Part shown: positions 1 through 10,573 of the stretch, piece by piece
Layout of the letters: each line of letters begins with the position of its first letter
How positions within the stretch are numbered: the first letter of the stretch is position 1
Assembly (NCBI GenBank): GCA_039208735.1
Contig: JBCCQY010000219.1
Span: 1-12,089 of the forward strand
Direction of reading: 5' to 3'
Length of the DNA stretch: 12,089 nucleotides
Source: Myxococcota bacterium
Lineage (GTDB): Bacteria > Myxococcota_A > UBA796 > GCA-2862545
Position numbers and translations under genes: made by a program
Notes under the pieces: generated by a model
What the model saw: the letters and a program-made list of their open reading frames with translations, nothing else
Told to the model about the DNA's origin: nothing
Database searches by the model: none

Positions 1-2
1 AC

Positions 3-1772
3 CGGGAAGAATTGTATGGGTTTCTCCATGACGATGGTTGGACCATCACCGTGCCTGGGCTCGCGTTGGATCTGTTTCTCGACGGGGCGGCGATTGCGGC
101 GGCATCGGGAGATGTAGACGGAGACGGGATTGACGAGGTCGTTGCCTTAGATGACGCCGATCGAGTCTGGATTTGCGAGCTGGAGCCCGATGGGTGCGAT
201 GCGTTCGACATTAATGATGCATTGGACCAGCTCGACGTCACCGTGGCGGACGTTGATGGGGACTCTATTGAGGAGCCGATTCTGCTGCTTGTCGATGCAA
301 CGAGCAGCTACGCGTTCGCGTTTGATGCGCACAATGATGAGATTGGCGTCGTAGGAAGCTACTTTGGTCGGGTCGATGACGAGCAGGTGACCCGCATCGC
401 CGCAGGAGATGCAGACGGCGACTTGGTGGCCGAGCTGGTCGCGCTCCGCGACCCTTGCGTGTTCGATGTCTGCAATGACCAGTTGTTGCTTATCGAATCC
501 ACGATTCTTGATGGGAAAGGCGAGTTTCAGTTCGCCAGCCGCCTAACGATGGGCAACGCGACGGTCATTGACGTGGCGGCCGCCGACACCGACGCTGACG
601 ATGACGTTGAAGTTTTGGCCTTGTCCAGCAACGACAACACAGTGCTGGTGCATGAGGTCGGGCCGGCGGCGTTCATTGAGGTCGACGCGTGGGCGAACCT
701 ACCCGGAACGGGCGCGGCGACTCGAATCGCGATGGCCGATCACGACGGAGACGCTCCTCGTGCCACTCTGCTCGATGGACCACAGGCCGTTGAGGGAGAC
801 CTGGTTCCGCTCGCGATGATCCTCGTGCCGCCCTACGACCGGCAGTACAGCGCGGGCGACGCCGGCGTGTCGTTTGGTACGAGCGAGGGCACCTCGAAGA
901 GCCAAAGCGAGGGCACGAGCTTCGGTGTCAACTTCAGCATCGGGGCTCGGGGGGCCCTCGTGCCGGGGCTTGTGACGATCAAGGCGGGAGCGAAGTTCAG
1001 CCAGAAAGTAAGTTCAACCAAGAGCTTTCGTGAACGTTACAACGTGGGGTCTCGCCATTCGGTGAAGGGCAACCCGACGCAGCTGGGTCCGTTTCATGCC
1101 GGCGTCATCCTGGGGTGGGGGTGCTACGACAGCTACCTTTACGAGCTCGATGATCCGGAGGGCAAGCTTAGCGACGGCAAGCAGCGCATCGATCGAAACC
1201 AGATGCTGCTGAATGTGCCGACGGGTGGCGGAGAGGCTTTGTACAGTTCTGCCCGTTACAACGCGATGGTCGATCGGCTAGGGAGCCTGCCCCGTTTCGA
1301 GATTCCCTACGAAGTGGGAAATCCCGACACCTACCCACAGGCTCCCGAGAAGCTCGATGGGTACCCGTTGGGGCCTGACGATGTCGTCTTCCCTGAACCG
1401 GGCACCTACGAGGTTTCCGACATCGGGGACTCCAGCTTCTCGCTTTCCTACACCAAAACCGAGACCACGAGTACGTCCACCTCTCGCAGCGTGGGCATCA
1501 ACGGTGGCGTCTCTGTGGGCAACAAGATTCTCGGTGTTGATGTGGGGGCCGGGGCCGACTGGGGCTGGACCGATGGCTATTCGGTGGGAGTGAGCGAGGG
1601 AGCGTTCTTCCGCGGTGGAACCCCACCGATTCCCGACGACCCCTCGACTCCAGAAGATGAGTTCGCAGTAAACAAATTCCGGTACCAGCCCTGGGTATAT
1701 CTCCAGGCGTGGACGAACCCATTCGACGAGCCTGCGTCTATCGTCGTCCTGACCTACAGTGTCCAACGATGA
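3..1772 (+). CDS. FG-GAP/VCBS-like Ca-binding repeat protein with a C-terminal beta-rich domain carrying two amphipathic hairpins (5' partial)
   Basis: The frame is open from base 3 (CGG GAA GAA TTG), so the real start is probably upstream of the window. Five DxDxD repeats: GDVDGDGIDE, ADVDGDSIEE, GDADGDLVAE, ADTDADDDVE, ADHDGD. Short Cys pairs (CELEPDGC, CVFDVC) suggest an extracytoplasmic location. The stop TGA overlaps the next ATG. Confidence 0.8.
   Translation, partial: REELYGFLHDDGWTITVPGLALDLFLDGAAIAAASGDVDGDGIDEVVALDDADRVWICELEPDGCDAFDINDALDQLDVTVADVDGDSIEEPILLLVDATSSYAFAFDAHNDEIGVVGSYFGRVDDEQVTRIAAGDADGDLVAELVALRDPCVFDVCNDQLLLIESTILDGKGEFQFASRLTMGNATVIDVAAADTDADDDVEVLALSSNDNTVLVHEVGPAAFIEVDAWANLPGTGAATRIAMADHDGDAPRATLLDGPQAVEGDLVPLAMILVPPYDRQYSAGDAGVSFGTSEGTSKSQSEGTSFGVNFSIGARGALVPGLVTIKAGAKFSQKVSSTKSFRERYNVGSRHSVKGNPTQLGPFHAGVILGWGCYDSYLYELDDPEGKLSDGKQRIDRNQMLLNVPTGGGEALYSSARYNAMVDRLGSLPRFEIPYEVGNPDTYPQAPEKLDGYPLGPDDVVFPEPGTYEVSDIGDSSFSLSYTKTETTSTSTSRSVGINGGVSVGNKILGVDVGAGADWGWTDGYSVGVSEGAFFRGGTPPIPDDPSTPEDEFAVNKFRYQPWVYLQAWTNPFDEPASIVVLTYSVQR
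108..752 (+). repeat. Protein-level FG-GAP-like repeats (5 copies, probable beta-propeller blades)
   Basis: Recurring hydrophobic-[AG]-D-x-D-[GA]-D-xxx-E-hydrophobic pattern at roughly 45-60 aa spacing; the fifth copy lacks the E. Confidence 0.75.
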
Positions 1773-2980
1773 GGGCGGGACTCATGCCGCTCTTGGCGTT
1801 GGCGGTCGGTTGCGTCGCAAGCCCTTTGGACTCTGGAGAATGGGGCGCGATTCGGTACTTTGCGGACGTGCTCGGCGATGTGCCGTTACCGATGATTCCT
1901 CCTCTCACGGATCGACAAGGCAATACCTACGTCTTGTACGGGGCGCCGGGCCTTGACGACGTCACGGTGTCTCGGTTGTCGGTCACGGGCAATCGGCCGA
2001 CGGCGTGCGACCCGAATCCGTCCGAGACGGATCCCGGAACGTCTGGTCTTCACGGCTTTGTCGGCCGAACATTGGACCGCGTGTGGTACTGGACGGGCAC
2101 GGCGCTCGTCGAGGTGAAGGACTCGGGATCGTGTGAGTTCGTCCTTGGCAACGATCCGGTCTCGGGAACGGAAGTGCGCTTCTTGGGAGTGGCGCCGTAC
2201 GTCGATGACACACCCTCCCGTCGCTTTGCCACAGCCTTGGTTGGCTCGGGTACGGGCGAGTTCAACTTCACCCTGGTCGACCTCGACCGAGGGTTGCCGT
2301 TCAATTCCGAACCGTTTCCTTCGGACGATCCAAGAGAACTGCGAGTGGTGGGGACCGGAGTCTGGGAAGCCGAACGAACAACGGTGTTTATCGTTGCGTT
2401 CTCGAGCCAGGTACAGGCCTTCTTCCTGGATCGGCTGGGTGACGTGGTGGCACGACGCGACGTTGCGTTGCCCAAGGACATCGCAGCCTATGATGTCGAA
2501 GGCTTCCTCCAGTTCAACGACGCTGGGTATGGCGCGGGGTTGCTCTCAGATGGACGGATCCTCACGCTACGGGCCGTTGCGGAGTCCGCGGTCATCGAAC
2601 CCGACTTCACGGCCTTGGGGCTTTTGACCTGGCAGGGCGAACTCTATGTGACGGGGGAACGAGACGGCCAGGCCGTGCTCGCCCGAGTGGAATCGGATCG
2701 CGAGCTAACGGCAGCCATTCCGTTTGATGCGGCCGCACGAGCGGCCGATGGCCTACGAGAAGGCCGGTTCGCCAACGACGAACGCTCGCGTCCCCTGCGA
2801 CGTGTTCCTTGGGATACCGTGCGCACCGCGATCGGGACGCGGCCGCTGATCACGCCTTGGCCCCTCGATCCTCACACGGTGGGCAGTGTGGGATGGGTGG
2901 TTGCAGGACCCGCCTTCGCCACCGGCGTCGACCCGGTGACGGCGGTGGGGTTCAGTCCCGTCGGCTTGGAGGTCCCATGA
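1769..2980 (+). CDS. Putative lipoprotein (~403 aa), beta-rich, function unknown
   Basis: ATG 1769 overlaps the upstream TGA (ATGA). The N-terminus MRAGLMPLLALAVGC has a basic residue, a hydrophobic core and a lipobox-like Cys. An alternative start is ATG 1784. The ORF-track start at 1709 lies inside the upstream gene. Confidence 0.75.
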   Translation: MRAGLMPLLALAVGCVASPLDSGEWGAIRYFADVLGDVPLPMIPPLTDRQGNTYVLYGAPGLDDVTVSRLSVTGNRPTACDPNPSETDPGTSGLHGFVGRTLDRVWYWTGTALVEVKDSGSCEFVLGNDPVSGTEVRFLGVAPYVDDTPSRRFATALVGSGTGEFNFTLVDLDRGLPFNSEPFPSDDPRELRVVGTGVWEAERTTVFIVAFSSQVQAFFLDRLGDVVARRDVALPKDIAAYDVEGFLQFNDAGYGAGLLSDGRILTLRAVAESAVIEPDFTALGLLTWQGELYVTGERDGQAVLARVESDRELTAAIPFDAAARAADGLREGRFANDERSRPLRRVPWDTVRTAIGTRPLITPWPLDPHTVGSVGWVVAGPAFATGVDPVTAVGFSPVGLEVP

Positions 2981-4107
2981 TGCTCCTCCTCGGTGCGCTG
3001 GGGTCAGCGATGGCCGCTACACCTGCCCCGGCTCTGCAAATTAGCGGGTTCGTTCAGCCGAGCTTTCTGGTTCAGGTCGCACCATCAGCCGTCCCGCGGG
3101 ATGCCCTCACCTTTGGGCTACGCGACAGCAAAGTCGGGCTCACCTTCGCAGGCCAACCGCTTCCCCAATGGAAGTACAAGGCGTTCCTCTCGATTGGCGC
3201 ACCGACCAGTGTGGTGCGTGACGTTACCTTTGTCGACACCAATGACAACGGGTTTTTCAACAGCATTGGGATTTCGCGTACCCAGGTCGTGAGCGACATC
3301 GTGCGAGAGATCTCGGTGACGTGGGTCCCCACCTCGGGCTTTCAGATTCGAGCTGGTCAGATGCCGGTGCCGTTGACGGCGACTGCGCAGTCGGCCGATG
3401 CCCGGTTGCTCTTCCCGAACCGCGCCAACCCGAACCGGCGACTCTTGGCCGATGACGACTTGGGCATTTTGGTCGAGACAGCAACGCCACGAGGCATCGT
3501 TTCGGCCAAGGTCGGTGTCTTCAATGGCCGCAACCTACCAGGTCGGCGAGCGAGCGAGCGTGGGTTGGCCTACCTCGCTCGGGTGGAAATCGCGCCGCTC
3601 GGCGAGCTTTCCTACGATGAGGTGAATCCCCTGCGGTCCGAGGCTCGCTTCTCGTTGGGAGCGGCTCTGATCTGGAACCCTTACCGGGTATTCGATAATG
3701 TTGGGTTCTCACAATCACGTGTGAATGATGTGCGGGGTTCGGTATCGGCTCGGCTGTCGCTTGTCGGATTCACCCTCTCCGCCGAAGCACTTCATCGCTA
3801 CCAACTCGATTCCCTCTCGGAACGCCCGGTCATCGCGACCGGTGCGTACACCCAAGCATCTTGGAAGCTGCCGATTGCGCTCGAGCCGATTGGTCGTGTG
3901 GGATGGGTAGCCGAAGACCGTAGTTTTGACCCTCGAAACACCATTTGGGGGGCTGGAGGATTCAACCTTTACCCTGCGTTTGGGGCGGTCGAGGAGTCTC
4001 GTCGAGACTGGATTCGCTTCGGCCTTGTGTACGAGGTTCAACGCCGAGTCACCGAGGGCGAAACGATCCAGGGTGCACAGGCGTTTGCGGTTGTCCGGTT
4101 TGAGTGA
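2977..4107 (+). CDS. Outer-membrane beta-barrel, phosphate-selective porin O/P-like
   Basis: ATGA overlap at 2977-2980 and GGAGG at 2968-2972. Signal peptide ends in AMA|A. Family-typical segments: ISGFVQ, FQIRAGQMPVP, DDLGI, KVGVFNG, YLARVEIAPLG, GAYTQASW, LEPIGR. C-terminal amphipathic strand AQAFAVVRFE. Confidence 0.75.
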   Translation: MMLLLGALGSAMAATPAPALQISGFVQPSFLVQVAPSAVPRDALTFGLRDSKVGLTFAGQPLPQWKYKAFLSIGAPTSVVRDVTFVDTNDNGFFNSIGISRTQVVSDIVREISVTWVPTSGFQIRAGQMPVPLTATAQSADARLLFPNRANPNRRLLADDDLGILVETATPRGIVSAKVGVFNGRNLPGRRASERGLAYLARVEIAPLGELSYDEVNPLRSEARFSLGAALIWNPYRVFDNVGFSQSRVNDVRGSVSARLSLVGFTLSAEALHRYQLDSLSERPVIATGAYTQASWKLPIALEPIGRVGWVAEDRSFDPRNTIWGAGGFNLYPAFGAVEESRRDWIRFGLVYEVQRRVTEGETIQGAQAFAVVRFE

Positions 4108-4161
4108 ACACTGACCGGCGACTCTTCGACTGAATGAAACTAAATAAGAACTTGCGTTCAA

Positions 4162-4190
4162 TCGATAGATCAAGGTTGAACCAATAGAAT
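4162..4190 (+). promoter_or_regulatory. Candidate sigma70-type promoter TCGATA-N17-TAGAAT
   Basis: -35 matches 4/6 and -10 matches 5/6 of the consensus with 17-nt spacing. The -10 lies at the centre of the palindrome. Confidence 0.35.
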
Positions 4191-4199
4191 ATTGGTTCA
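4177..4199. promoter_or_regulatory. Perfect inverted repeat TGAACCAATA-gaa-TATTGGTTCA, candidate operator
   Basis: 10-bp perfect arms with a 3-nt spacer in an AT-rich intergenic region. An extra half-site TGGTTCG follows at 4201-4207. Confidence 0.6.
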
Positions 4200-4255
4200 C
4201 TGGTTCGAATCTTGTCTTTTTGGTAAGATCTTGATAGATAAGGTAGAACCTGGAC

Positions 4256-4624
4256 ATGGATAGTGAAAGTTACAAGCGGCTTGTTCGGGTTGCTCGAAAG
4301 AAAACGAGTTCAAACGCGAGTAGAATGTCAATTCGTGAAGTTGCCTTGGATGCGGTGCTTGCCCATGACCTCAAGGGTGAGCAAGCAACGTCGTTGGGGC
4401 GAGTAGGACGAAGGATTGAAGTTGCGATTCAAGAGATGCGAGCATGTGCACAAGCTTGGGCGACAAGTGCTGAGAACCGTGATCAGCACGCGCTCTCTTT
4501 TGAAGAGGCCCGTAAGACCGCCCTTCAAGCGAAATGGGAACTCAAGGTCCAGCGGGAAGCCCTGGGGATCGCCGATCATTCGATCCTCGATCAAATCTAC
4601 CCAATTCCGCAAAAACTCCGGTGA
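4256..4624 (+). CDS. Small helical hypothetical protein, DUF6665-like
   Basis: Motifs E-Q-A-T-S-L-G-R-V-G-R-R-I-E-x-A and W-x-L-x-V-Q-R-E-A-L-G-I-x-D-H...Y-x-I-P match my recollection of DUF6665 (not searched). AAGG at 4240-4243 precedes the ATG. GC is about 52% by hand count (4261-4620). Confidence 0.65.
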   Translation: MDSESYKRLVRVARKKTSSNASRMSIREVALDAVLAHDLKGEQATSLGRVGRRIEVAIQEMRACAQAWATSAENRDQHALSFEEARKTALQAKWELKVQREALGIADHSILDQIYPIPQKLR

Positions 4625-4796
4625 GCGTCCCATTTCGTGCACATCCGACCCGAATATGGTAGCCTGTTCGCATTGCTCGTTCCGAGCCTAGAACCTAGAG
4701 GACGCAGCGAACGTGGAACATCCCGTCCAACGCATCCTGGTATGGGTTCGTTTGCTTGGGTAATTGATGAGCAACCTCCCCCCCTGGAGCGCGTAC

Positions 4797-5036
4797 ATGT
4801 CACGAAACAAGGCGAAAGCGCTGCCGCTCGATGAACGAATTGCACAGTTGGTCGACGAGGTAGCGACGCGAGAACCCATCACGGTCAAGCAACTCCAAGA
4901 GTCGCTCCCGTGGTCCCGTCCCACCCTACGGCGCGTCTTGCGCGAAGCCGAACGGTTGGGTGTGATCGCCCGGGTCAAGGGTGCACATTCGACCCAAAAC
5001 CCGGGACGGCCCTCCGACGTATGGGCGCTCGCCTAG
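4797..5036 (+). CDS. Stand-alone winged helix-turn-helix DNA-binding protein (79 aa)
   Basis: GGAG at 4786-4789 lies 7 nt before ATG 4797. PITVKQLQESLPWSRPTLRRVLREAERLGVI is an HTH core, followed by the wing motif GRP..W seen in ArsR/DeoR/ROK-type wHTH domains. Confidence 0.75.
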   Translation: MSRNKAKALPLDERIAQLVDEVATREPITVKQLQESLPWSRPTLRRVLREAERLGVIARVKGAHSTQNPGRPSDVWALA

Positions 5037-5071
5037 TTCTCTCCATGACGGTAGTCTCGTCGTGGAGGAAC
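5036..5071 (+). promoter_or_regulatory. Hairpin sequestering the Shine-Dalgarno of the downstream gene
   Basis: GTTC-T-CTCCATGACG (5036-5050) pairs with CGTCGTGGAG-GAAC (5058-5071): 14 bp with one G-U pair and one bulge. It contains GGAGG at 5064-5068. Confidence 0.5.
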
Positions 5072-5076
5072 GTCCG

Positions 5077-5460
5077 ATGCACCAATCCGCTGGTTTTATC
5101 TGGCTCACCTGGGTTCTTCCGTTGGTCGCCTGTACCGGGGAAGTGCCCGCAGGGGTAGCGGTCGGATCAGTGGGTTCAGTGACCCATTCGGCTCGCGCAA
5201 GTTGTGTCGTCGATGGTGCGCCGTGCGAGGTGCGTCACGCGTGCCGTGACGTGTACGGGGACGCGTGCGATCCACTTCGTGGTGACGAAGGATGCAAGGG
5301 AACGTGCTGGTCGTGTGATGACCCGGCGTTGGCCCGCACCTACGCGGAAACCAACCACCGTTCATGCAGCCGCATTCGCCTGTACTGTGAAGAGACCCAG
5401 CGTCCGTTCAACGACGCCTGCGGCTGCGGGTGTGAGAGAATCGTCCCTGGGGCCCGTTGA
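5077..5460 (+). CDS. Cysteine-rich lipoprotein (127 aa)
   Basis: GGAGG lies 8 nt upstream of ATG 5077. Signal peptide with lipobox LVAC. 12 further Cys, including CDP..G...C.G.C and Y.....C..I...C......F.D.CGCGC. Confidence 0.75.
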   Translation: MHQSAGFIWLTWVLPLVACTGEVPAGVAVGSVGSVTHSARASCVVDGAPCEVRHACRDVYGDACDPLRGDEGCKGTCWSCDDPALARTYAETNHRSCSRIRLYCEETQRPFNDACGCGCERIVPGAR

Positions 5461-5558: not shown

Positions 5559-8144
5559 ATGTCCGACGTTCCCAGTGCGATCACTCCCATTCAAATCGAA
5601 GTTGAGATGAAGACGTCCTATCTCAACTATTCGATGTCCGTCATACGTGGTCGGGCTCTGCCCGACGTGCGTGATGGGCTCAAGCCGGTGCATCGCCGCA
5701 TCCTTTACGCCATGCACCGTGAGGGCTTGTCGTCCTCGAAGAAGTACAGCAAATGCGCCGGTGTCGTCGGCGAGGTGCTCAAGCGGTACCATCCTCACGG
5801 CGACAGCGCGGTCTACGATGCGCTGGTTCGCATGGCTCAGCCTTGGAACCTTCGTTATCCCCTAGTCGACGGGCAAGGCAACTTTGGGTCAGTCGACGGG
5901 GACCCGGCCGCCGCCTACCGGTACACCGAGTGCCGGATGACCAAGCTCGCCGAGCATCTTCTCACCGATATCGATGAGGAGACGGTCGGGTTCGAGCCCA
6001 ACTTTGACGGCACCACCCTCGAACCTGAAGTGCTGCCGTCGGCCTTCCCAAACCTGCTCGTCAACGGGTCTGAGGGCATCGCGGTCGGGATGGCGACGAA
6101 GATCCCACCCCACAACTTGGGCGAGATCATCAACGCCTGCGTGGCGCTCATCGAAGAACCGGAGCTGTCCGACGACGCGTTGCTCGAGATCGTGCCGGGC
6201 CCAGATTTTCCCACGGGCGGCACCATCTGCGGTCGCAGCGGGATTCGCGATGCCTATCGAACGGGGCGGGGCCGCATTCGCATCCAGGGCACGGCCCACT
6301 TTGAGGACATCGGGTCCCGCCGGGCCATCGTGATCACCGAGATCCCGTACCAGGTGAACAAGTCCCGCCTCATCACGCAGATCGCAGAGCTGGTTCGCGA
6401 CAAGAAGCTCACCGGCATCTCCAACCTACGTGACGAAAGTGCCCGTCAGGGCATGCGGGTGGTGGTCGAACTCAAGATGGACGCCGTGGAGGACATCGTC
6501 CTCAATCACCTCTACAAGCACACCCAGCTTGAGGTGACCTTCGGCGCCATCCTACTCGCCATCGTCAACAAGCAGCCGCAGGTCCTCAAGCTGCGCGACA
6601 TGCTGCATCACTACATCAGCCATCGACGCGAGGTCGTTCTCCGGCGCACCCGGTATCGCCTCCGCAAGGCCAAAGAGCGGGCCCACATCCTCGAAGGCTA
6701 CCGCATTGCGCTGCGCGATGAGGGAACCACGAGCGAGGTCATCGAGCTGATTCGCGCGAGTCGCGATGGAGCGACAGCTCGTGCGGCATTGGTGGCTCGC
6801 TTTGAGCTGAGCGAGATCCAGGCCCAGGCCATTCTCGACCTTCGATTGCAGCGCCTCACCGGCATCGAGCAAGAGAAGATTGAGGTGGAATACCAGGAGT
6901 TGATGGTCAAGATCGGTGAGCTTCAGGCCATCTTGGGCAGCGAAGACCGTCTCATGGAAGTGGTCAGGGAAGAGCTGCAGAAGATTGGCAACGACTTTGG
7001 CGATGAGCGGCTCACGCGCATCATTGAAGCGACGGGAGAGCGCAACGAACTCGACTATGTCGCCGAAGAAGACCAGGTCGTGACCCTGTCTCACCTGGGC
7101 TACATCAAGCGGGTTCCGCCTGATGAATGGCGCATGCAGCGCCGTGGTGGCATGGGCAAGAAGGGCATGGACACCCGGGACGAGGACTTTGTGACCTCGA
7201 TCTTCGTGGCCAATACTCACGCCGTGTTGTTCGTCTTCACCACCCAGGGCCGGGTGTACCCGCTGCAAGTCTATCGGGTGCCCCAGGCGAGCCGAACGTC
7301 ACGGGGCAAGCCGATCGTCAACCTCGTGCCCATCGAACAGAACGAGGCCATCGCAGCGGTCATCTCGGTGCGCGATGTCGCGGATGACGACACGCGCGAC
7401 CTCTTGTTCTGTTCGAAGTTCGGGCTGGTCAAGCGCACGCCGCTCACCGCATTCAAGAACCTCCGTCAGGGCGGTCTCATTGCGTGTGGGGTGGCCGACG
7501 ACGATGAGCTTTGCGTGGTCAAGCTCCTCGAGCCCGACCATCTTGAAGACATCATCGTGCTGACCCAGCATGGGCAATGCATCCGCTTCCCGAAAGAAGG
7601 GCCGAAGGGCGCTCCGGTGTATGGGCGGACCGCGCGCGGAAACAAGGGAATCTCCCTGCAAGAAGGCGACTTTGTCGTCGACATGTTGCTGGTGCCGACC
7701 GATGCTGCGCCGGGTGAGGAACCGCCCTCCGACGAAGGGTTGCCCCCCGAGGTCGAGGAGCCGATGGAAGACGACGATCTTCCCATCGACGCGGAAGCCG
7801 ACGATGCGGGACCCGAACCCGACAGCACGTTGTTGACGGTGACCGAACTCGGCTACGGCAAACGCACTCCGCTCGGCGCGTACCCCCGGCAGGGACGCAA
7901 CGGGAAGGGCGTGATCAGCCACAAGACCGGTCCTGGAATCGGTGGCGTCGTGGGGGCCCGTGAAGTGGGTCGCGACGATCAGCTCATGCTCGTCACCGAC
8001 ACTGGCCGGGTGATCCGCATTGCCGCCGAAGGCGTTCGTCTCGTCAAGAGTCGGAGTTCCAAGGGGGTACGCCTGATGCGGCTCGACAAGGAAGAACGGA
8101 TCGTCGATATGGAGCTGCTCCCGGCCGAAGAAGCTGAGGAGTAG
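5559..8144 (+). CDS. gyrA: DNA gyrase subunit A
   Basis: [35 protein letters not shown], catalytic RY122[10 protein letters not shown] and PGPDFPTGG are present. The GyrA-box-like QRRGGMG (7137-7157) and six C-terminal pinwheel blades favour GyrA over ParC. Confidence 0.97.
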
Positions 8145-8156
8145 GCCGTTTCGACG

Positions 8157-8924
8157 GTGGGCCAGGTAGCGGCGGTCGGACTGGGTCTGACCACCGCACT
8201 CACCGCGGCCTTGCTGTGGCTGCATCCGGCTTCCCCCACAGCCCTGGCGTGGGGGGACTTGGCGGTGGGACGAGGGCGCCCTCAAATTGCAGTTCGAGCC
8301 TATGATCAGGTCGCGCATCGGCATCCCTACCCCGAGGTTCGGGCGAAGGCGTTGCTTCGGAGCGCTCGGGTATGGGCCGTCGAGCTTGGAAACTCAGACG
8401 AGGCACGTCTTCGCTACGAGTGGGCGCTTCCCTTGCCGTTGCCGACCCACGAACGCGCCGCCATGCTCGATCATCTGGCCCAGATCTTGGACGATGCGGG
8501 CCGGCACCGTGACGCTGCCCAGCGCTTTCGGGAGGCGTGCGACTTGGATCCCGACTCCCCAAATGCGGTGACGCGCTTGGTTCGCGCCGCTCGCGCAGCC
8601 GCCCGAGGCGGCGATCGAGCGACGGCGGATCGGACATGGCGGCGGCTTGCCGAGACCCATCCGCAAGCCGCGGGTCGAGCGTGGCTGGGACGGGCAAACC
8701 TCGAACTGGAGCAAGGCCACACGGTGGGCGCCTTGCGGTTTTATGAGCGTGCGGTCGATCACGGCGTGGAAGCTTCGGTTACCGCGGTCGCGCGGCTTGG
8801 GATAGCCACGTGCCTCGAACGGCTCGGCGACCTGGACGAAGCCATTGGTCAGCTCGATGAGGCTGATCTCCCCAGGTCAATCCGAGAGCATCGGGAGTCA
8901 TCGATCCGCGCGCGGGACCACTGA
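8157..8924 (+). CDS. Tetratricopeptide-repeat protein with N-terminal signal/membrane anchor
   Basis: GTG start 12 nt after the gyrA stop, with GAGGAG overlapping the gyrA end. Hydrophobic N-terminus. TPR-like helices LAQIL..AGRH.DA...F..A..LDP, AWLGRANLE...G....AL..YE.A and ARLGIA.CLE.LG..DEAI. Confidence 0.8.
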   Translation: MGQVAAVGLGLTTALTAALLWLHPASPTALAWGDLAVGRGRPQIAVRAYDQVAHRHPYPEVRAKALLRSARVWAVELGNSDEARLRYEWALPLPLPTHERAAMLDHLAQILDDAGRHRDAAQRFREACDLDPDSPNAVTRLVRAARAAARGGDRATADRTWRRLAETHPQAAGRAWLGRANLELEQGHTVGALRFYERAVDHGVEASVTAVARLGIATCLERLGDLDEAIGQLDEADLPRSIREHRESSIRARDH

Positions 8925-10235
8925 GTCCACGGCGGTGGCCTGGATTCGATCCGCTGCAAGGTGAAACCAGCCCCAAATGGCCAGTCCTCGCAACAGCGTC
9001 GTGACGCCGATACTCCACCAAATCCCATCGATGCCAAGTCCCAAGGGCCAGGCGAAAAGCCAGGCCAAAGGCAAGCGGACCAGGGCGCCCAGCGTGGTCA
9101 CCCACAAGGGAGGGACGGTGTTGCCAGCCCCGGTGAAGGCTCCCGAGTAGGTGGAATCGAGGGTCATGAACACCAGGACGAGGGCCTGGATGCGGAGGTA
9201 GGCGGCGCCGCTTGCGATGGTTGCGGGATCGTCGCTGAAAATGCGCATCATCGGGTCCGCAAGCCCGAAGAGCACAAAGGTCAAGGGAAGCGTCAACGCG
9301 ACGCCCCAACGTGCCGCGGCATGGGCCGCAGAACGGGCTCCTTCGGCGTCACCGGCGCCGAGTCGTTGTCCCACCAGGGTGCAAGCGCCCACCTCGAAGG
9401 CGACGCCAAGCATGTACGCTGCCGATTCGACCCGGTGGCCCACCCCAAGCGCTCCGAGATGGAAGTCGCCGAAGGTGGCGATCATCGCGCCGAGAGCGAC
9501 GTAGACGAGCGAAAAGGCAATGCCCCGAACCGTCATCGGACCGCCGATGCGTCCGATCTCGGACAGCAGTGCGGCCGATAGCGGGTTGAAAAGCGGTGAA
9601 TGGTCACGGCGGATTAGCAGGCCGATTCCCACGGTGGCACCAATGCCATTGGCCATCACGGTGGCCCAAGCCGCCCCTGCGATGCCCATGTACCGGATCA
9701 GCAGCGGGTCGAGCAAGAGGTTGACGCCGAACGCGATGGCCGTCGTGAGAAGGGCGGTCCGGGTGTCTCCAAGTCCGCGGAAGACCCCGCCTACCACGGT
9801 GTTCAAGGTGAGCGAGAGTCCGCCGAGAAGGCTCGCTTCAAGGTAGGATACGCCAAGGGAATGCACGGACGTCCCGCGGTCCAGCTCCATGGCCTCGAGG
9901 TAGGGGCTCGTCAGCGGAACCAAAAGAGCCAGGATGAAGGCGGCCATACCGGCTGCGACGAGGCCATGTCCATAGACCTGACGCACCCCGATGGGGTCAC
10001 GAGCGCCGATTCGCTGGGCGACTAGCGCATGCACGCCGGTCGCGGGGAGTTCGGCGACGAGCACGATCATCCACCATCCGAACGCACACGCGCCCAACGC
10101 GGTCAGCGCTTCGTTCCCGAGTTGGCCGACGAAGTAGCTGTCGCACAGCAGCAGGCCGGTCCTCAACCAACCCATCACCGCGATGGGCCACGCAACGGCC
10201 CAGACTTCGGCCCCGATGGACCGCTTAGCGGTCAT
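8898..10235 (-). CDS. MATE family efflux transporter (445 aa)
   Basis: MATE hallmarks: AWP, D..FVGQLG.EAL.ALG, LVAQRIGA, GVFRGLGDTRT, NLLLDPLLI, GIAGAAWAT, LVGQRLGAGD, GAGNT.PP, LGIDGIW. The start is placed at MTAKR (10235) because the longer ORF-track start overlaps the upstream gene. Confidence 0.92.
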   Translation of the reverse strand: MTAKRSIGAEVWAVAWPIAVMGWLRTGLLLCDSYFVGQLGNEALTALGACAFGWWMIVLVAELPATGVHALVAQRIGARDPIGVRQVYGHGLVAAGMAAFILALLVPLTSPYLEAMELDRGTSVHSLGVSYLEASLLGGLSLTLNTVVGGVFRGLGDTRTALLTTAIAFGVNLLLDPLLIRYMGIAGAAWATVMANGIGATVGIGLLIRRDHSPLFNPLSAALLSEIGRIGGPMTVRGIAFSLVYVALGAMIATFGDFHLGALGVGHRVESAAYMLGVAFEVGACTLVGQRLGAGDAEGARSAAHAAARWGVALTLPLTFVLFGLADPMMRIFSDDPATIASGAAYLRIQALVLVFMTLDSTYSGAFTGAGNTVPPLWVTTLGALVRLPLAWLFAWPLGLGIDGIWWSIGVTTLLRGLAIWGWFHLAADRIQATAVDSVVPRADR

Positions 10236-10246
10236 GGAATCGTGCC

Positions 10247-10573
10247 TTAGACGACCAACCACGCCGCCACGGCGGCACTGGCCGCCAGCAGTAGGAACGC
10301 GCCGCCCCACATCGCCACTTGCTGGCTGCGCGAAGGCCCATCGTGCCGATTCGCAGCCGCCCCGGGCCGTGGGAATCGAGAGAGCAACTCAGATTGAGTC
10401 GTCTCTTCTTCAGGAGGAACGGCGGATTCGTGCAGATCGACGGCGCGGGGCTCCGGCTCCGAAGCAGAAGCGTCCTCGCTCCGCTCGGCCATGACGTCCC
10501 AAACCCCCTGCGGGCTGTCCTGAGAGGTGTCCTGCGCAGAGACCTTGTGGTACTGCGGGAGCTCGGTCGGCAT
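10247..10573 (-). CDS. Hypothetical protein with a single C-terminal transmembrane helix (108 aa)
   Basis: GGAGG lies 4 nt before the ATG. Polar/acidic, probably disordered body, then VAMWGGAFLLLAASAAVAAWLVV-stop. It ends 11 nt before the MATE start on the same strand. Confidence 0.55.
   Translation of the reverse strand: MPTELPQYHKVSAQDTSQDSPQGVWDVMAERSEDASASEPEPRAVDLHESAVPPEEETTQSELLSRFPRPGAAANRHDGPSRSQQVAMWGGAFLLLAASAAVAAWLVV

Follow-up and report, generated by a model that had tools for sequence, protein, structure and literature searches.

A conserved two-hairpin domain, predicted to assemble into a membrane-spanning beta-barrel, follows FG-GAP repeats in a myxobacterial three-gene operon

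The window analyzed here is the whole of contig JBCCQY010000219.1 (12,089 bases) from a Myxococcota bacterium with a 9.4 Mb genome of 64% GC, and it begins inside a gene that we have named gene A. This open reading frame (ORF; 3–1772, plus strand, +3 frame) is cut at its 5' end by the contig start, so that 589 amino acids are seen, and comparison with full-length relatives of about 700–740 residues places some 130 N-terminal residues beyond the contig. Contigs aligned to positions 1–4300 show no indels and provide no usable extension of the gene A start. The visible protein is composed of FG-GAP repeats (108–752) followed by a 339-residue domain, P0002 (753–1769), which has no curated family match and which we predict to be a two-hairpin oligomerization and pore domain; residue numbers below refer to P0002. 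The fusion of the hairpins to FG-GAP repeats, claimed in a first-pass annotation of this DNA, is real, as the repeats match Pfam FG-GAP_3 (E-value 1.8e-7) and contain five D-x-D-G/A-D motifs. By analogy, this segment probably forms a propeller with bound Ca. Two further plus-strand genes follow, the start of each overlapping the preceding stop codon (ATGA): gene B (1769–2980), a lipoprotein-like beta-propeller without a Pfam match, and gene C (2977–4107), a Porin_O_P-like outer-membrane barrel carrying a D-x-D-N-D-G insert.

The two alternating hairpins described by the first-pass annotation are present exactly as quoted, at 864–1070 (residues 38–106) and 1431–1616 (residues 227–288). Strand S1 (residues 38–65; 864–947) is a polar Ser/Thr stem that continues into an amphipathic belt (915–947), and strand S2 (residues 74–105; 972–1067) runs from a belt (972–1010) into a polar stem. 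Strand S3 (residues 227–255; 1431–1517) again leads from polar stem to belt (1491–1517), and strand S4 (residues 262–290; 1536–1622) has its belt at 1536–1568. The strand faces in the query read TFVFIA/SGNSG, VIAAFQV/TKGKSK, VIGVV/GNGS, and VVAAWW/DGGDG. An AlphaFold2 model of the domain shows two long hairpins with strands of about 28 residues rather than the compact sandwich that had been raised as an alternative, with hairpin tips modeled at a predicted local distance difference test (pLDDT) score below 50. Only two strands and one helix lie between the two hairpins in this model.

The alternation is kept in homologues. Across 116 aligned sequences (the query and 115 close homologues covering most of the domain), belt strands are 0.81 hydrophobic on the outer face and 0.07 on the lumen face, and the difference between faces is at least 0.4 in 113 of them. 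The same holds for 40 of 41 distant sequences, with face values of 0.82 and 0.06. In the close set, the Ser/Thr fraction is 0.41 in the stems and 0.14 elsewhere, and the frequency of the most common residue is 0.39 in the belts and 0.40 in the stems, compared with 0.54 in the core; belts and stems thus conserve a pattern rather than a sequence. A strict rule combining a Ser/Thr run with two alternating strands, composed post hoc once the sequence had been seen, is matched by none of 5000 shuffles, and in the real ORF it detects hairpin 1 only. The internal repeat is weak (48% over 8 columns and 76% over 28 columns), and the two halves, each consisting of hairpin, strand, and strand, align colinearly from end to end at just 30–37% probability; an origin by tandem duplication is possible.

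Strand pairing was analyzed by mean-field coupling over 135 sequences, with rows permuted per strand in 74 trials. Antiparallel ladders connect S1 with S2 (index sum 141), S1 with S4 (327), and S2 with S3 (329); no permutation reached the score of any of these, and their registers were stable in 20 of 20 subsamples. A fourth antiparallel ladder, between S3 and S4, has an index sum of 515 or 517, its score being reached in 1 of 74 permutations. No ladder was seen in these sequences between S1 and S3 or between S2 and S4, where 50 and 74 of the 74 permutations, respectively, reached the score. The four ladders close into a cycle, S1–S2, S2–S3, S3–S4, and S4–S1, and because four strands are unable to pair as a cycle inside one chain, one of the pairings would have to be made between chains. 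Among the 41 distant sequences the mapped registers rank first for S2–S3 (1 of 39) and S3–S4 (1 of 34), as weak ladders whose scores are reached by 6 and 2 of 64 permutations; the S1–S2 and S1–S4 ladders were not recovered from this set.

A three-copy model of residues 8–338 draws on the same alignment as the coupling analysis and scores 0.79, 0.79, and 0.77, with the best control at 0.00. Among proteins with solved structures, the mark used to judge such scores is reached by 20 of the 30 that are pairs and by 1 of the 23 that are single chains, a calibration made with two copies and other alignments, unlike the three-copy run. Contact agreement between runs is at least 77%, and partner pLDDT is at least 67. 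The modeled interface is head-to-tail, with residues 72–105 and 159–168 packed against residues 213–257 of the next copy, and the model contacts 231–98 and 227–102 both sum to 329, the register given by coevolution for S2–S3. The predicted interface also carries the most conserved residues of the domain: R168 (0.99), D223 (0.92), S222 (0.91), and S165 (0.89). Two motifs account for these positions, S165 with R168-Y-N (1236–1262) and V-S-D-x-G (residues 221–225; 1413–1427), the latter predicted to contact residues 163–168 of the neighboring subunit.

The registers place the belts at 55–65, 86–76, 243–253, and 272–262 side by side, on one face and at one height. All four strands have polar stems of 13–14 residues, above which lie belts of 11–15 residues. 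The strand shift per subunit would be zero with register 515, which also ranks first in the distant set, or two with register 517; reports on perforin and gasdermin E put the shift at two residues for each subunit (bioRxiv 2021.07.03.450947, PMC13534543). The first-pass annotation had proposed an oligomerizing pore or channel former, and this part gains strong computational support from the alternation, the closed ladder cycle, and the head-to-tail model. On this modeling, it is likely that the domain builds a membrane-spanning oligomeric barrel, long-stemmed, with four strands per subunit and a belt of bilayer width.

Searches of curated libraries place the domain in no named family. Pfam returns Fil_haemagg_2 alone (E-value 0.19), NCBIfam has no model for A, B, or C, a phmmer search of the PDB with the domain finds no match, and a viral fold library gives nothing credible. 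Profile searches of the PDB with each half of the domain (modules 1 and 2) return mostly beta-pore formers. For module 1, 16 of 23 matches belong to this group, including all of the top six (best E-value 1.5e-5), led by 7Y79/7Y78, which we take to be Tpp78, and followed by CEL-III, Cry23Aa1, and Sip. For module 2, all 13 matches do (best E-value 0.064), among them natterin-like proteins, PLP1, monalysin, epsilon toxin, and anthrax protective antigen (PA). No secretin, CsgG, or porin appears among these matches for either module. Because the matches cover essentially nothing but the hairpin, and S-V repeats read off-frame score as well, they speak for a shared design and not necessarily for common descent.

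The design itself is that of aerolysin/ETX-MTX2, Toxin_10/Bin, CEL-III, monalysin, and PA, all of which have the same Ser/Thr-rich polar stem beside an alternating insertion hairpin. The nearest named clusters in the ESM Atlas are also of the aerolysin-type/PA group (0.88–0.89), a lead only. Pfam ETX_MTX2 matches 1 of 41 module-2 members, weakly (E-value 0.041), and none of 41 module-1 members, and fold scores are low. Aerolysin-like proteins are described as having a single insertion loop for each chain and its five-strand core (PMC3110756). The likeness to aerolysin-type and PA stems drawn by the first-pass annotation stands for the pattern only: these proteins contribute one hairpin per chain, and the gene A domain contributes two, both within the ladder cycle. 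Its second comparison, with MACPF/CDC proteins and gasdermins, stands for the number of hairpins and differs in the predicted seam. MACPF/CDC proteins share two transmembrane hairpins, four strands per subunit, a long stem, and a separate binding domain, and in their soluble form they have a kinked central sheet with helical TMH bundles; the MACPF signature motif and the CDC undecapeptide occur in 0 of 116 sequences each. Gasdermins likewise contribute two hairpins and four strands per subunit to one continuous barrel, and in gasdermin E the seam joins the first strand to the neighbor's last, beta3–beta8 (PMC13534543), whereas the gene A domain is predicted to join S2 to S3 of the next subunit (residues 72–105 with 222–257). 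Unlike gasdermins, the lipoprotein members of the gene A family lack a C-terminal inhibitory domain, are exported, and carry FG-GAP repeats, and the gasdermin fold is not among the fold-search matches of the domain, in which the core was not searched alone. We found no description of the family in the open-access literature, a scope outside which most subscription journals lie, and the accessible parts of papers on Nkp-1 (PMC8615270), pyroptolysins (10.64898/2026.10.05.756811), and polymorphic toxins (a survey, PMC3482391) contain no match.

Genes A, B, and C travel together. The order A-B-C is kept in 18 of 22 loci. Among 20 sampled genomes that carry a close homologue, 17 have a propeller lipoprotein gene and then a porin-like gene after gene A. 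Of 401 genomes from the phylum, 17 contain gene B, which adjoins gene A every time. The genome studied here has one orthologue each of genes B and C. The D-x-D-N-D-G insert of gene C resembles the FG-GAP motifs of gene A and may form a hairpin outside the cell that binds Ca and serves to dock A or B. Cys-containing lipoprotein-like ORFs that resemble each other and have no Pfam match also adjoin the operon at two loci (L001:6065-7417 and L002:12154-12840), on the upstream side at one locus and on the downstream side at the other. A reading of the locus as a phosphate-uptake operon was dropped, as the transporter that neighbors it in 8 of 22 loci looks like a dicarboxylate/amino-acid symporter and is absent from the window locus.

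A phmmer search returns no fewer than 160 clusters (50% identity) that lie close to the query, and the family has distant groups besides. The named close homologues come from Myxococcota, Polyangia, and Deltaproteobacteria assemblies, which makes a myxobacterial host probable. A profile search of the same 401 genomes finds matches in 31. Full-length relatives are arranged as a lipobox-like Cys, a Cys-rich repeat (75 of 91), FG-GAP repeats, and then the two-hairpin domain; the lipobox-like Cys is present in 76 of 91, compared with 34% of shuffled N-termini under this loose rule. Weaker profile matches include 13 proteins of 815–1350 residues with their parts in the same order, and the genome itself encodes one such distant paralogue (C199:9187-11901, minus strand), a lipoprotein of about 900 residues that has both hairpins as well as FG-GAP-like repeats. 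The searches brought up no homologues on plasmids or phages and listed no RNA record carrying the sequence. The gene A family is real, conserved, and unannotated, and probably represents a new structural variant among membrane beta-barrel formers.

Distant members stand alone or have C-terminal tethers. Two remote proteins align across the whole domain at 97.9% probability, and one of them leads to a group of proteins, 951–1304 residues long, that have FN3 and Ig-like tails and lack a lipobox, Clostridia-like by impression only. At four metagenome loci of this lipobox-free group, all four neighbors scanned, the next gene encodes cadherin-like repeats. The cadherin-repeat neighbors at L078, L079, L082, and L083 have a similar N-terminal module and may be a display stalk, and two family copies lie near each other at L079 and L088. 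Among the distant rows, those of lipoprotein type have a lipobox in 16 of 18 cases and in some a long spacer (Ig-like repeats in L069, Big_5 in L067), and the 23 without a lipobox have C-terminal tails of 183–404 residues, one of which ends in a hydrophobic stretch at the C-terminus. P0168, archaeal-looking by impression only, combines an Ig-like domain with a hydrophobic C-terminus suggestive of a membrane anchor. In the ESM Atlas, 21 unnamed clusters match, the top three of which (279–306 residues, 0.96–0.97) may represent the domain in standalone form; the most common taxa among the top matches are Bacillota and Pseudomonadota, with low recognition values (1733 and 1820). A search for standalone domains, in which 8000 candidates were scored and five proteins returned, mostly from short contigs, gives no evidence either way.

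We favor a reading in which gene A encodes a surface-tethered beta-pore former of an unnamed family that acts on other cells, to which we assign a probability of roughly 0.5. The protein would be exported and lipid-anchored, as the N-termini of relatives suggest, and would dock through its FG-GAP propeller, for which Ca and receptor binding are proposed from what such repeats generally do. Subunits would then form a ring, with S2 pairing with S3 of the next subunit and S4 with S1 within the subunit, as the model and coevolution predict; the polar stem would keep the core off the bilayer while the hydrophobic belt crosses it, going by sequence and register. The target would be another cell, prey or rival, as the varied tethers suggest, and our guess is that B and C serve to assemble A, to display it, or to restrain it. 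That the protein is displayed and acts on another cell is proposed because of the varied tethers, the long spacers, and the orphan and lipobox-free members. In the main rival reading, the ring would sit in the outer membrane of the producer itself, forming a channel or bushing that resembles secretins, CsgG, or FlgH; A would be a lipoprotein ring, B a plug or a pilotin-like helper, and C a partner barrel, an arrangement that we consider possible and hold only tentatively. The lipid anchor indicated by the lipobox-like motif, the single copy, and the coupling to a porin, with overlapping genes that keep their order and a gene B found only beside gene A, all argue for such a channel, as does the top rank of secretins in fold searches. 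The lipoprotein signal of the relatives and the conserved operon, which sustain this rival, had escaped the first-pass annotation. Homology to secretins was itself rejected, as the Foldseek E-value of 1e-7 comes with template modeling (TM) scores of 0.1–0.19, and no Secretin family match appears in Pfam at E-values up to 1 or in NCBIfam. Secretins share a four-strand outer wall per subunit and are reported to have an inner barrel with gates and an N3 domain (bioRxiv 2021.07.20.453082), whereas neither N domains nor gates are apparent in the gene A family, whose stems are polar on both faces and which includes lipobox-free members. CsgG and FlgH, which form lipid-anchored rings in the outer membrane of the cell that makes them, are not among the fold and profile matches listed. 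The channel in the producer's membrane and the pore acting on other cells could each hold for different clades.

The coupling ladders reveal a polymer without showing that it closes into a ring in a membrane, so a surface lattice, tube, or ribbon outside the bilayer, its belt packed on protein, has also to be weighed. It would account for the zero shift of register 515, unlike perforin and gasdermin E, and for S4 remaining hydrophobic above the belt (0.54). We judge it improbable, given that all four strands carry belts of 11–15 residues at one height, that the tips are hydrophobic, identity is low, and the opposite face is polar, as in membrane barrels, and that register 517 yields the two-residue shift. 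An ordinary monomeric adhesin or lectin, with the Ser/Thr-rich strands folded into a soluble sandwich, would fit the FG-GAP repeats as the sole curated match, and is very hard to reconcile with the closed ladder cycle, the three-copy result, the conserved residues at the interface, and strands of about 28 residues.

The known beta-pore formers use few structural classes, with one hairpin per subunit (aerolysin, PA) or two (MACPF/CDC, gasdermin). The gene A family would join the stem design of the former to the strand number of the latter, in a topology unmatched in the libraries searched. We give even odds to a new structural class, defined by two aerolysin-style stems per chain, four strands, and a non-gasdermin seam, always placed behind FG-GAP repeats, displayed at the surface by a lipid or by a tether at the C-terminus, and accompanied, within one myxobacterial clade, by a propeller lipoprotein and a porin dedicated to it. 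If surface display and action on other cells prove true, the family would serve as a contact weapon or a conduit between cells found across several prokaryotic groups; in uncultured myxobacteria it is a candidate agent of contact killing or a candidate envelope channel, and it may provide a new scaffold for large pores. Were the ring instead to lie in the producer's own outer membrane, A, B, and C would constitute an undescribed three-gene outer-membrane machine.

Downstream of the operon, the stretch from the end of gene C to 5036 (4108–5036) is lower in GC (0.49–0.54 around 3751–4750), and contains a DUF6665 gene (4256–4624; Pfam match below the cut-off) and a small helix-turn-helix gene (4764–5036). 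The remaining genes are unrelated neighbors: a small Cys-rich ORF without a Pfam match (4981–5460), a gyrA-type gene with an acidic insert near its end (5559–8144), a TPR protein (8157–8924), a MATE transporter on the minus strand (8898–10310), and two bPH_2 membrane proteins (10612 to the end of the window).
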